Virus record (IMG/VR): IMGVR_UViG_3300008262_000026
Strand: one strand, 5' to 3'
Source of the DNA: a virus
Lineage: Duplodnaviria; Heunggongvirae; Uroviricota; Caudoviricetes
Length of the DNA: 64,000 bases
The stretch's first letter is position 1, and every line of letters starts with the position of its first letter. Below the pieces are notes generated by a model. It worked only from the letters and a program-made list of their open reading frames with translations, made no database searches and had not been told where the DNA came from. Positions 28,001-30,322 of the stretch are shown in pieces. The translations under genes were made by a program, and so were the position numbers.

Positions 28001-28040
28001 AACTTATCTTGTCTAAAAGTTGATACAGCATTAAAAACTG
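28001..28040 (+). promoter_or_regulatory. copy of the TTATCTTGT...GATACAGCA module in the 5' leader/promoter region of the TROVE gene
   Basis: ACTTATCTTGTCTAAAAGTTGATACAGCATTAAAAAC resembles GGTTATCTTGTAAAAGATACAGACAGCAATT from the tRNA-like inserts. GGTTAACC palindrome follows at about 28055..28075. Confidence 0.4.
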
Positions 28041-28092
28041 TTTCCATCTTTTAGGTTAACCGACATTAACCAATCAACTTGAGGAAATTACT

Positions 28093-29559
28093 ATGACTTT
28101 TCTAACCGCACTTGAATCTGAACTGAATGTGACCGAAACTCTGAACGGAGCAAAGGCATACAAATCCACGCTGAACGCTTGTGTTGACCTGTTTGGTCAA
28201 ATCAATGCCTGCCGTAATGATATTGCGAAGGCAAAGCGTCTGTTTGCCCTTGCATATCGTGAGGATGCAGAAACCGCAGTTCGTATTCTCTTCAACTCCC
28301 GTGACATTCGTGGTGGACAGGGAGAGCGTAAAATCTTCCGCGAACTGTTCCAAGACCTTATTCAAGAGAACAGTGAAATTGGTAAAAAACTGATTGGTCT
28401 GATTCCTGAGTATGGTCGTTGGGATGACCTGCTGATTCTTGAGAACACTTCCGTCTGGGATGAAGTTCTTTCTGTAATCAAGACTCAGTATCTTGCAGAT
28501 ACTCTTAGTCTTACTGCAGGATTGAAAATTTCCCTTCTTGGTAAGTGGCTCCCTTCTATCAATGCTTCTAGCAAAGATAGCAAGCGTCTGGGTCGTAAGA
28601 TTGCAGCACACCTTGAACTTACTGAGCGTCAGTATCGTAAGCAACTAGCAGCACTCCGTACTCAAATTCGGATTGTTGAGCAAAAGATGTGTGCTAAAGA
28701 GTGGTCTGCAATTGACTATGAGCACCTTCCTTCCCGTGCTGGTTTCATGTATCGTAAGGCATTTGCAAAGCAAGATGCTACTCGTTATGCTGAATACCTC
28801 AGTGCTGTGGAGAAAGGTGAGAAGAAAATCAATGCAGGAACCATCTATCCTTATGAGATTGTTGATAACTATCTCTACAAGGGGCAACGTCAGGATAAAA
28901 CCATTGACCTGATGTGGGAAGCACTACCTGATTATACCGAAGGGAAACCTTTCAATGGTCTGGTTGTTGCTGACGTATCTGGTTCTATGATGGGTCGTCC
29001 TATGACGGTTTCTATCTCTCTTGCGATGTATATTGCAGAGCGAAATACTTCTCCTATCTGGAAAGATAAGTTCATCACTTTCTCCCAGAATCCAGAACTG
29101 CAGAAGATTGCTGGTGCTACCATCGGTGCCAGAATTAACAATCTTTCCCGTGCTGCTTGGAATATGAATACTGACCTGATGGCAGTATTCAAGACCATTC
29201 TAAGTGCAGCAGAGAATAACTCTGTTGCTCCAGAAGATATGCCTGAGAAACTGATTATCGTCTCTGATATGCAGTTTGACCAAGCGTGTCGTTCTAACAA
29301 GCGCACCAACTTTGAGCAAATTCAAAAACTCTACCGTAAGGCAGGTTATGAACTTCCTCAACTAGTTTTCTGGAATGTTAATGCCATTGGTGATAATGTT
29401 CCTATCAAAGCACATGACACTGGAACCGCACTGGTTTCTGGTTGTTCTCCATCCATTCTGAAATCTGTTCTGAGTGGGAAAGTAATTTCTCCTGAGGATG
29501 TGATGAGGGATGCTGTGTATAACGAACGTTATGCACCTATTGGTGAGGCATTTGCCTGA
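28093..29559 (+). CDS. Ro60/TROVE-like protein with C-terminal vWA (MIDAS DVSGS) domain (Rsr-like)
   Basis: vWA MIDAS motif LVVADVSGSMMG is certain. The protein aligns by eye with human Ro60 in three stretches. The stretch around LKWRPDEEILKALDAAF matches RQDKTIDLMWEALPDY. LAVDVSASM matches the MIDAS motif. DTGALDV matches DTGTALV. GERKIF and SD-type RBS GAGGAA are present. Confidence 0.6.
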   Translation: MTFLTALESELNVTETLNGAKAYKSTLNACVDLFGQINACRNDIAKAKRLFALAYREDAETAVRILFNSRDIRGGQGERKIFRELFQDLIQENSEIGKKLIGLIPEYGRWDDLLILENTSVWDEVLSVIKTQYLADTLSLTAGLKISLLGKWLPSINASSKDSKRLGRKIAAHLELTERQYRKQLAALRTQIRIVEQKMCAKEWSAIDYEHLPSRAGFMYRKAFAKQDATRYAEYLSAVEKGEKKINAGTIYPYEIVDNYLYKGQRQDKTIDLMWEALPDYTEGKPFNGLVVADVSGSMMGRPMTVSISLAMYIAERNTSPIWKDKFITFSQNPELQKIAGATIGARINNLSRAAWNMNTDLMAVFKTILSAAENNSVAPEDMPEKLIIVSDMQFDQACRSNKRTNFEQIQKLYRKAGYELPQLVFWNVNAIGDNVPIKAHDTGTALVSGCSPSILKSVLSGKVISPEDVMRDAVYNERYAPIGEAFA

Positions 29560-29567
29560 CCAACAAA

Positions 29568-29597
29568 TGAAGGGGGTTGACAACCTCTCCCCCTTCT
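29568..29597 (+). terminator. hairpin terminator after the TROVE/vWA gene
   Basis: GAAGGGGG-ttgacaacctct-CCCCCTTC followed by T/A-rich tract. Confidence 0.5.
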
Positions 29598-29605
29598 GCT
29601 AAAAT
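29577..29605 (+). promoter_or_regulatory. consensus sigma70-type promoter TTGACA-17-TAAAAT upstream of the tRNA-like array
   Basis: -35 at 29577..29582 sits in the loop of terminator hairpin GAAGGGGG...CCCCCTTC. -10 at 29600..29605. Confidence 0.5.
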
Positions 29606-29669
29606 AATTTCATAGATGATTCAGCAATTCTTACTTCTTATTTGGAAAGAAAAACAATCATCTAGTTTC

Positions 29670-29786
29670 ACCAGAATAGTGTAATGGTAGCACGCTTAAA
29701 AACGGTTATCTTGTAAAAGATACAGACAGCAATTACCAATAATCCATAGGGAGGAGGTAGTCTAGGTTCGATTCCTAGTTCTGGTA
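29670..29786 (+). ncRNA. tRNA-like RNA 1 with ~45-nt insertion replacing the anticodon arm (candidate Y-RNA-like)
   Basis: 7-bp acceptor stem ACCAGAA/TTCTGGT, D-arm GTGT-AATGGTA-GCAC, T-arm CTAGG-TTCGATT-CCTAG. 69 nt lie between D and T arms instead of ~23. Confidence 0.55.
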
Positions 29787-29788
29787 TC

Positions 29789-29810
29789 AGACAGAAAACT
29801 GTCTGTTTAT
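29789..29810 (+). terminator. hairpin CAGACAG-AAAA-CTGTCTG + TTTAT after tRNA-like RNA 1
   Basis: 7-bp perfect stem, 4-nt loop, U-tract. Confidence 0.4.
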
Positions 29811-29894
29811 GGGGAAGTTCTCTGGGGGACCGGAGGTTATCTTGTTTAGATAAAACAGCATCAAACTTAGTAAGTTCGACTCTTATCTTCTCCG
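29811..29894 (+). ncRNA. tRNA-like RNA 2 (non-canonical anticodon loop UUGUUUA, 16-nt unpaired variable region)
   Basis: Acceptor GGGGAAG/CTTCTCC, D-arm, anticodon-position hairpin TTATC-TTGTTTA-GATAA, T-arm GTAAG-TTCGACT-CTTAT. Carries the CAGCA module. Confidence 0.5.
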
Positions 29895-29897
29895 CCT

Positions 29898-30015
29898 GCC
29901 GAAGTAGTGTAACGGTAGCACGTTAAAAAGCGGTTATCTAGTCTTAGATACGGACAGCAATTTCTCTAAATTCCATTGTCAGGGAAAGGTTCGGGTTCAA
30001 TTCCCGACTTCGGCG
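29898..30015 (+). ncRNA. tRNA-like RNA 3 with ~47-nt insertion
   Basis: Acceptor GCCGAAG/CTTCGGC, D-arm GTGT-AACGGTA-GCAC, T-arm TCGGG-TTCAATT-CCCGA. Insert has hairpin TATCTA-GTCT-TAGATA plus CAGCAATT. Confidence 0.55.
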
Positions 30016-30085
30016 TTAGGTAATTCAGCAATTAAAACCTCTTACTGAAAATAGGAAAAAAATTACCTAGATATACTAAGATAAG

Positions 30086-30150
30086 TCAGCAACCACCTTT
30101 GGTTAATTCGTTTGCATAAACGATAGATGGTTCGATCCCATCGCATATCT
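30086..30150 (+). ncRNA. degenerate tRNA-like remnant (T-arm GATGG-TTCGATC-CCATC, CAGCAA motif)
   Basis: Good T-arm, imperfect acceptor pairing. Probably a decayed copy of the unit. Confidence 0.3.
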
Positions 30151-30161
30151 TATCTTGACTC

Positions 30162-30274
30162 GGGAAGGTAGCTCAGTCGGTAGAGCAATTGTCTAAAAAA
30201 GTTATCTTGTAAAAGATACATCAGCAAATAATACTAAAAACAACGTGTTGTAAGTTCAAATCTTACCCTTCCCG
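30162..30274 (+). ncRNA. tRNA-like RNA 4 with 40-nt insertion in the anticodon-loop position
   Basis: Acceptor GGGAAGG/CCTTCCC, D-arm GCTC-AGTCGGTA-GAGC, anticodon stem ATTGT/ACAAC split by the insert, T-arm GTAAG-TTCAAAT-CTTAC. Confidence 0.55.
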
Positions 30275-30287
30275 CTTAAAATTTGAT

Positions 30288-30322
30288 TACTGGGCCCCCG
30301 AAAGTGCATCAGTAATGTAAGG
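30288..30322 (+). promoter_or_regulatory. motif B copy 2
   Basis: Immediately 3' of tRNA-like RNA 4. ATG-TAA variant. Confidence 0.6.

Follow-up and report, generated by a model that had tools for sequence, protein, structure and literature searches.

A phage locus with a Ro60-like protein gene and an array of tagged, tRNA-shaped RNAs: a probable Ro60-Y RNA-type ribonucleoprotein

Does a phage gene for a vWA-domain protein, together with the tRNA-shaped RNAs encoded directly behind it, specify a ribonucleoprotein of the kind formed by Ro60 and Y RNAs? The question is raised by a locus in a 64,000-nucleotide stretch of cyanophage DNA (Caudoviricetes; IMG/VR record IMGVR_UViG_3300008262_000026), the whole of which we call the window. 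Ro60-Y RNA particles have mostly been studied in animals and a few bacteria, and the role of the tRNA-like domain is not yet settled. We consider it likely that the window locus encodes such a particle, in which a Ro60-like protein of divergent sequence would be joined by small RNAs from the same locus; we infer their binding to each other and their function. One helix followed by a CAGCAA motif, together called the tag below, accompanies the same Ro-like gene family in very different phages, which most likely makes the system a variant of the Ro60-Y RNA particle. An original prediction from the DNA letters had proposed a Ro60-like vWA protein beside promoter-driven, tRNA-like Y RNAs; this pairing is now supported by the co-occurrence of gene and tag, a match to the YrlA family and a circular permutation, although part of the reasoning behind it did not hold.

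Tagged RNA modules of the window

A covarying helix with single-stranded CAGCAA(U/C) behind it is common to nine RNA modules, all encoded on one strand: four tRNA-shaped RNAs, two stand-alone hairpins, an RNA with a T arm only and two hairpins in the 5' untranslated region (5'UTR) of the Ro60-like gene (Table 1). The four tRNA-shaped RNAs had been predicted; the other five modules are additional. In all four tRNA-shaped RNAs the tag consists of a hairpin core AUCU...AGAU and, after 2-5 nt, C(A/U)GCA(A/U)U, and the stand-alone hairpins present the same helix and motif in permuted connectivity, 5'-UAGAUGAUU-CAGCAAUU-loop-AAUCAUCUA-3'. Among 36 aligned stand-alone hairpins the helix is 97% paired, with compensatory changes in five of its nine pairs. 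When the whole window was scanned, filter-free, with a covariance model built from the cyanophage stand-alone hairpins (R1), matches with expectation values (E) below 1 were confined, over the 64 kb, to 27950-30151, leaving aside the weak echoes that the palindromic hairpins give at their own positions on the reverse strand. A scan of the region against Rfam, with E up to 10, returned tRNA matches only and no known family on the tag.

Three of the tRNA-shaped RNAs (classes A, B and C) have complete acceptor, D and T arms, with 43-60 nt inserted in the anticodon arm. They lack the contiguous 5-bp anticodon stem and 7-nt loop of a canonical tRNA and exceed the gathering score of the Rfam tRNA model (RF00005, 29 bits) only with these inserts. 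The fourth, compact RNA was recognised by its arms: a 7-bp acceptor stem with one G-U pair, a D arm and a T arm. The place of the tag differs among them. In class B it separates the D arm from a second hairpin (UUAUCU-loop-AGAUAC-AGA-CAGCAAUU, 29706-29734), in class C CAGCAAUU occupies 29955-29962, and in class A the tag fills the anticodon loop (hairpin 30202-30219, CAGCAAAU at 30222-30229). The compact RNA carries its tag hairpin at the anticodon-arm position (29837-29853, with CAGCAU at 29856-29861); its minimum free energy (MFE) fold contains the acceptor, D and tag hairpins, and it has homologs in three related loci (L013, L020 and L036). In an alignment of 21 homologous tRNA-shaped RNAs, the acceptor, D, T and tag helices are paired in 100% of cells, with compensatory changes seen at 12 of 21 pairs, which argues that the arms are selected rather than due to chance. 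The alignment, made with MAFFT, is out of register for the second hairpin, whose covariation was therefore not counted. We had also considered this second hairpin as an interrupted anticodon arm, an idea weakened by its homology to the hairpin that precedes the T arm (variable-arm position) in a YrlA-type RNA of Felixounavirus.

As originally noted for the RNA cluster, no canonical tRNA is present: ARAGORN in default mode found none in the whole 64 kb. Its intron-permitting mode gave arbitrary anticodons and was used for locating the RNAs only.

The RNA with a T arm only has CAGCAAC at 30087-30093; its tag helix encloses a small hairpin and the T arm (GAUGG UUCGAUC CCAUC), and the RNA ends within the tag helix, as YrlA and YrlB do. 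Both 5'UTR hairpins are seen in MFE folds; the first occupies the same place in related loci, and the second has counterparts at ~2935-2989 in related loci with R1 scores of 37-56 bits. The 3' arm of the second hairpin (end 28080) abuts the Shine-Dalgarno sequence GAGGA (28081-28085), and the ATG follows at 28093. The interval between the first two tRNA-shaped RNAs holds, at 29788-29810, a 7-bp hairpin without mismatches (CAGACAG-AAAA-CUGUCUG), with UUUAU behind it. The terminator scan gave no call for this hairpin, which might act in attenuation within the array or in processing.

Table 1. Features of the locus and its upstream neighbours in the window (R1, covariance model of the stand-alone tag hairpins; aa, amino acids)
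Feature	Position	Strand	Evidence and details
RNA ligase-like open reading frame	23024-23572	+	182 aa; Pfam RNA_ligase PF09414 E 6.9e-13; PHROG 548 E 4.9e-26
Band-7/SPFH protein	25061-25882	+	Pfam Band_7 E 2.2e-19
CCA-adding enzyme-like tRNA nucleotidyltransferase	25961-26692	+	Pfam PolyA_pol head and RNA-binding domains; PHROG 24229 E 5.5e-51
Promoter P1, for the Ro-like mRNA	27908-27936	+	TTGACA-17-TATACT, sigma-70-type, 11/12 consensus
5'UTR tag hairpin 1, helix AAGAUAAGG / CUUAUCUU	27950-28010	+	CAGCAAC 27959-27965; R1 31.1 bits, E 1.6e-4
5'UTR tag hairpin 2, helix AAGUUGAU / AUCAACUU	28017-28080	+	A-CAGCAUU 28025-28032; R1 18.8 bits, E 0.087
Ro60-like protein open reading frame	28093-29559	+	488 aa; DUF2828 and DUF7788/vWA with MIDAS
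G+C-rich 8-bp hairpin GAAGGGGG...CCCCCUUC	29569-29596	+	Read from sequence; loop contains the P2 -35 box
Promoter P2, for the RNA array	29577-29605	+	TTGACA-17-TAAAAT, sigma-70-type, extended TG, 11/12 consensus
Stand-alone tag hairpin UAGAUGAUU-CAGCAAUU-loop-AAUCAUCUA	29613-29664	+	R1 61 bits (seed sequence)
tRNA-shaped RNA, class B	29670-29786	+	Rfam tRNA 45.0 bits, 59-nt insert; covariation
Compact tRNA-shaped RNA	29811-29894	+	Sequence; low-stringency ARAGORN call; MFE fold
tRNA-shaped RNA, class C	29898-30015	+	Rfam tRNA 46.2 bits, 60-nt insert; fold z-score -3.5; covariation
Stand-alone tag hairpin UAGGUAAUU-CAGCAAUU-loop-AAUUACCUA	30017-30069	+	R1 59.5 bits (seed sequence)
T-arm RNA, tag helix UAAGAUAAG / CUUAUCUUG	30077-30157	+	Pattern finder; R1 15.4 bits; MFE z-score -3.7
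tRNA-shaped RNA, class A	30162-30274	+	Rfam tRNA 54.6 bits, 43-nt insert; fold z-score -3.5
26-nt repeat copy closing the RNA array	30289-30314	+	One of 19 copies in the window

The tag in related and distant phages

Among sequenced phages, Synechococcus phage B3 (Kyanoviridae) comes closest, with ~70% identity in DNA and protein and the same layout. In B3 (L001, 5586-5753 and 5946-6055), GenBank annotates the homologous tRNA-shaped RNA as 'tRNA-Pseudo-GCA' and leaves the flanking tag hairpins unannotated. B3 also has a small coding sequence, gp346, between the Ro-like gene and the array promoter. In a sample of 38 viral-contig loci with a Ro-like homolog, almost all those of at least 65% identity have one to four tRNA-shaped RNAs of 112-123 nt immediately 3' of the gene. 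Many related phages possess, besides these, up to 22 ordinary tRNAs upstream, which implies that the tRNA-shaped RNAs are an extra class and not the tRNA set of the phage. R1 matches with E of at most 0.01 in 25 related loci all fall on the gene strand (101/101) and cluster at ~2860-2990, within the 5'UTR (gene start at 3001), and just downstream of the gene.

The tag is likewise a neighbour of homologs whose identity is only 37-43%, from phages of Mycobacterium, Escherichia coli, Listeria, Staphylococcus, Bacillus, Enterococcus and Campylobacter. Three copies occupy a 360-nt gap 3' of the gene in Mycobacterium phage MAckerman, three lie between a promoter-like TTGACA box and the gene in Listeria phage AG20, and in Felixounavirus the tag is found inside the tRNA cluster 3' of the Ro-like gene. 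R1 proved too sequence-specific for these phages, whose tag-bearing RNAs score 15-23 bits (E 0.02-0.8), so we searched 16 distant loci for a pattern (a stem of 7 bp or more, then 0-3 nt, CAGCAA and a loop no longer than 60 nt) and compared the counts with dinucleotide shuffles. The pattern occurs 28 times on the gene strand and three times on the other, against a shuffle expectation of ~3.9 for either strand. Of the gene-strand occurrences, 23 lie within 700 nt outside the gene. In AG20 (L042, 461-1012) we also noted a match to the ROOL RNA (RF03087) of 90.1 bits against a gathering score of 99.1, located between tRNA genes ~1 kb upstream of the Ro-like gene.

A search of viral contigs for exact copies of the 17-mer TAGATGATTCAGCAATT gave 71 matches. 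Complete hairpins account for 34 of them; stretches that contain the gene have 22 of these hairpins and tRNA arrays have 12, with no others found. The remaining 37 matches, coding-sequence coincidences on VDDSAI codons, were filtered out by requiring the 3' arm. Complete tag hairpins at L097 5723, L050 3756 and L115 2578 lie in large arrays of ordinary tRNAs, with no Ro-like gene within the fetched stretch. That of L097 begins 2 nt past a tRNA-Lys and thus is a 3' trailer.

Likeness to Ro60 and Y RNAs, and competing explanations

The open reading frame predicted upstream of the array exists as described and is matched by the Pfam models DUF2828 (PF11443, E 9.3e-37) and DUF7788 (PF25043, E 2.2e-53) and, over its full length (residues 1-481), by the PHROG 850 'RNA-binding protein' profile (E 2.2e-144), which places it among the DUF2828/DUF7788 phage proteins. 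The predicted MIDAS (metal ion-dependent adhesion site) of the vWA domain is likewise borne out, D294-x-S296-x-S298, T360 and D392 being invariant in family alignments down to 38% identity. A Foldseek search with the predicted structure gave 2NVO and 2I91 as the only full-length matches. Computation thus shows, at the level of a structural model, a Ro60-like two-domain fold: a predicted helical repeat ring followed by a vWA domain with MIDAS. The family is large, with more than 7000 proteins scored in the protein collection and a homolog in at least 705 phage records; some of its members are annotated as 'Ro-like RNA binding protein' in mycobacteriophages or as 'RNA-binding protein'. The family profile also gave a weak match in the PDB to ribosomal protein S21 (8fmw_U, E 0.004, residues ~162-218), in the conserved segment around MCAKEW...YxxxPS; it may be due to chance or to a shared RNA-binding helix, and we regard it as incidental.

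On the RNA side, the Rfam YrlA model (RF02553) matches a tag-closed RNA beside a mycobacteriophage homolog (L040, 3538-3646) with 39.8 bits (E 1.7e-7), under its gathering score of 69 bits. The match has the T arm, closed acceptor stem and D arm in YrlA order, and AG-CAGCAAUU occupies the place of GNCGAA, the motif of YrlA that contacts Ro (PMC4201824). MFE folds of RNAs from Felixounavirus, Bacillus and Mycobacterium phages likewise contain the tag helix, CAGCAA, a T arm, a closed 7-bp stem and a D arm. The four tRNA-shaped RNAs of the window do not have the YrlA topology, in which the RNA ends in the Ro-binding helix and a loop closes the acceptor stem, and the window RNAs carry (U/A)CAGCAA(U/C) where YrlA has the 5'-strand motif GNCGAAN0-1G. 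They do have a YrlA-type tRNA-like D arm, T arm and acceptor stem, as indicated by the tRNA model (45-55 bits) and by covariation. When the tRNA-shaped RNAs of the window are opened at the tag-hairpin loop and their acceptor ends joined, alignment of the permuted molecules to the Felixounavirus RNA scores 87-116, compared with 53-72 unpermuted and ~58 shuffled (standard deviation 5-6), and the common segments include GUGUAAUGGUAGCAC and AUUUCU-NCGGUAAAGAAAAG. These scores indicate that the window RNAs are YrlA-type Y-like RNAs permuted back to the native tRNA topology. The mycobacteriophage counterpart and the permutation link the window RNAs to the YrlA class proposed for them; as encoded they are not YrlA members and have another motif and topology.

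Phage Ro60-Y RNA pairs are already known: Ro60-YrlA pairs occur in 22 phages (Chen et al. 2014, PMC4201824), and Ro60 of Thermus phage phiLo binds two adjacent Y-like RNAs, Yrl1 and Yrl2 (Hu et al. 2025, PMC12135203). Like Ro60/Rsr with YrlA/YrlB, the window locus combines a protein that has a ring-type helical domain and a vWA/MIDAS domain with small RNAs encoded on the same strand within ~1 kb; like YrlA and YrlB, its RNAs are closed by a helix with a short conserved 5'-strand motif; and it shares with YrlA the tRNA-like D arm, T arm and acceptor stem and the presence of RNA ligase or RtcB genes nearby. It differs in the protein, which has DUF2828/DUF7788 in place of TROVE and a shorter helical domain, in the motif, CAGCAA(U/C) versus GNCGAA/CGAA, and in the four tRNA-shaped RNAs, whose 7-bp acceptor ends are open, with a capped tag helix in the anticodon-arm region, whereas the acceptor stem of YrlA is closed. 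Unlike Ro60-Y RNA loci, it also has many RNA modules (nine here) and tag copies in the 5'UTR of the protein's own gene. The b7a-tRNA, as cited in bioRxiv 10.1101/312249, is a tRNA-like non-coding RNA of near-authentic tRNA shape, predicted near Band-7, RtcB and sometimes Rsr genes. The window resembles this context in having Band-7, RNA ligase and Ro-like genes within 7 kb, and differs from it in its ligase, which is of the PF09414 type and not RtcB. With canonical or intron-bearing tRNA genes, the window RNAs share their RF00005 scores of 45-55 bits and the absence of an encoded CCA end, a phage CCA-adding enzyme gene being nearby; they depart from them in lacking a contiguous anticodon stem-loop and in having a structured insert of 43-60 nt at variable positions, which also exists as free-standing hairpins.

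The stable RNAs C and D of phage T4, small, without assigned function and co-transcribed with tRNAs, resemble the window RNAs by description only. To our knowledge, T4 does not encode a Ro-like protein.

Several observations weigh against a Ro60-Y RNA-type particle. The structural model of the protein is of medium confidence (predicted local distance difference test score 74.9) and its Foldseek template modelling score is 0.39. The Pfam TROVE model (PF05731), named beforehand as the test that could speak against the original prediction, matched none of 11 diverse family members with E up to 10, and single-sequence and profile searches of PDB sequences with the family did not find Ro60. The by-eye alignment to human Ro60 offered in that prediction is thus not reproduced at the sequence level, and we describe the protein as having a Ro60-like fold, not as a TROVE family member by sequence. 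With the window RNAs themselves, the YrlA model reaches at best 15.7 bits (E 4.4). Among the 16 distant loci, no tag pattern was found near the homologs of Vibrio D484 and Serratia BF. It is co-occurrence only that suggests the tag as the putative binding site of the Ro-like protein, and tag hairpins also occur as 3' trailers of ordinary tRNAs, kilobases from the Ro-like gene, so they could be read by some different factor that goes with tRNA arrays.

This last observation keeps alive the alternative that survives best, in which the helix with CAGCAA would serve phage tRNA-array transcripts as a signal for processing or stability (for instance a 3' trailer guiding or blocking a nuclease), read by another factor, and the Ro-like gene is a frequent resident of tRNA regions. 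We find this distinctly unlikely. Hairpins do abut the 3' ends of tRNAs or tRNA-like RNAs, both in the window (30015/30016, where a stand-alone hairpin starts right after the class C RNA) and in L097 (5721/5723), they do occur in large tRNA arrays kilobases off the gene, and Ro-like homologs are often embedded in tRNA clusters. However, in Staphylococcus phage S-CoN_Ph1 and in MAckerman the tags flank the gene where canonical tRNAs are absent or more than 2 kb away in the fetched stretch; two tags lie in the gene's own 5'UTR throughout the clade; and in Listeria, Bacillus, Enterococcus and Campylobacter phages they stand just upstream of the gene, which is the constant neighbour of the tag. 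The hosts of these phages have very different ribonuclease (RNase) sets, so the reader of the tag should be phage-encoded. The position of the tag is, moreover, exactly that of the Ro-binding motif of YrlA.

We consider it very improbable that the tRNA-shaped RNAs are tRNA precursors with protein-spliced introns, their inserts being removed by an endonuclease and the halves resealed by the neighbouring RNA ligase, with the Ro-like protein acting as a chaperone or being unrelated. Three RNAs pass the tRNA model, and classes B, C, D and F permit a 5-bp stem and a 7-nt loop around the insert, several of these loops resembling anticodon loops (such as AUGUUAA and AUUGUAA); yet the loops often violate the U33/purine-37 rule and vary between close orthologs, and an anticodon loop is missing from class A and from the compact class. 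The insert changes position from class to class (at ~27/28 to 29/30, within the loop, or in place of the entire arm), its loops are not conserved, and no Rfam intron family was found in the scan. The RNA ligase gene ~4.5 kb upstream, the RtcB 'tRNA splicing ligase' gene near the Listeria phage homolog and the lack of canonical tRNAs in the window would fit splicing, but relatives with up to 22 ordinary tRNAs keep the tRNA-shaped RNAs directly 3' of the gene, the tag is also found in RNAs without any tRNA body and in the 5'UTR, and the second hairpin has its homolog before the T arm of the Felixounavirus RNA. Lastly, that the RNAs are functionless, decaying tRNA pseudogenes invaded by a small repeat, as the 'tRNA-Pseudo' annotation of the B3 homolog and the rejection of the window RNAs by ARAGORN in default mode might suggest, is scarcely credible in view of the compensatory changes that maintain every arm and the tag helix, the order, strand and position conserved over loci of 65-100% protein identity and recurring in distant phages, and the strong promoter ahead of the array.

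Returning to the Ro60-Y RNA-type particle, promoter P2 would yield a single precursor of ~700 nt, from which RNase P of the host, along with 3' processing, would release the individual RNAs; completion of their ends would fall to the phage CCA-adding enzyme. The helix and CAGCAA tag would serve as does the GNCGAA/GGUCCGA helix bound by Ro60 and Rsr, and the tRNA-like body could tether the Ro-like protein to enzymes of tRNA handling or RNA decay, candidates being the RNA ligase and CCA-adding enzyme encoded nearby and, on the host side, exoribonucleases (PNPase, for example). Such a particle might act in the repair, maturation or quality control of tRNA or other RNA during infection. Through the two 5'UTR tag hairpins, the second of which touches the ribosome-binding site, the protein may repress its own translation. 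A bolder proposal, which we hold to be rather unlikely, starts from the topology of the RNAs: with a Y-like RNA permuted back, in this cyanophage lineage, to the real tRNA topology, the particle would display a free acceptor end that can be completed with CCA, in some classes along with an anticodon-like loop. It might then be a decoy or sensor for host nucleases that cleave tRNAs in defence, feeding ligase and CCA repair and perhaps being aminoacylated, with the 3'-trailer tags recruiting the protein to phage pre-tRNAs, that is, an RNA-guided tRNA protection in hundreds of phages. If true, the system would span Felixounavirus, phages of Listeria, Staphylococcus and Enterococcus (Herelleviridae among them) and the mycobacteriophages with 'Ro-like' annotations.

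Some annotations already label the family Ro-like. In the literature searched, coverage of which was partial so that prior description is possible, we found no account of the tag, its breadth among phages, its copies in the gene's own 5'UTR or the non-permuted, open-ended tRNA-shaped form. A second Ro60-like family, unrecognisable by sequence, would be linked to its own conserved RNA tag, with RNA architectures that begin with plain hairpins and extend to tRNA mimics, permuted as well as non-permuted. This natural series of circular permutations would separate what the protein-binding helix and the tRNA-like body each require, and the tag would provide a simple sequence rule for locating partner RNAs and a reason to correct annotations that call such RNAs tRNA pseudogenes or omit them. 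Felix O1-like, Listeria, Staphylococcus and mycobacteriophages offer genetically tractable systems to study function.

Promoters, neighbouring genes and a repeated element

The promoter originally predicted downstream of the Ro-like gene, P2, agrees with the consensus as listed in Table 1. The G+C-rich hairpin that overlaps it had been taken for a terminator. The hairpin itself is real in sequence and kept in Synechococcus phage B3. With the -35 box inside its loop, no run of T behind it and no call in the terminator scan, however, the terminator label is weak.

The genes for the RNA ligase, the Band-7 protein and the CCA-adding enzyme lie 1.4-5 kb upstream of the Ro-like gene on the same strand, and the ligase-like protein may work with the Ro-like module. 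The CCA-adding enzyme also matches the NCBIfam CCA tRNA nucleotidyltransferase with E 2.7e-36, under the curated cut-off; none of the tRNA-shaped RNAs of the window encodes CCA. Elsewhere, a Band-7-like gene is found ~900 nt upstream of the homolog in MAckerman, RtcB near the Listeria phage homolog, an RNA ligase before the Serratia phage homolog and tRNA arrays beside other homologs. Bacterial Rsr/YrlA and the predicted band-7-associated tRNA keep the same gene company, according to bioRxiv 10.1101/312249.

Directly after the RNA array, 30335-30871 encodes a conserved phage protein of unassigned function (PHROG 6927, E 4e-78), followed by an N6/N4 DNA methylase (30865-31593); further downstream are a SNF2/ResIII helicase (36255-37502) and a second methylase (38184-39083). 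The repeat that closes the array belongs to a 26-nt element, ACTGGGCCC(C/G)(C/T)(G/C)AAAGTGCATCAGTA, with 19 copies in 21574-53457, all on the + strand, where none is expected by chance; other sites are 31594-31619, 34087-34112, 46496-46521 and 52866-52891. It has the shape of an imperfect hairpin with a GAAA-type loop, and several of the copies checked stand directly after the stops of open reading frames (31594, 34087 and 35323). This element is probably a phage-wide terminator or RNA-processing repeat.

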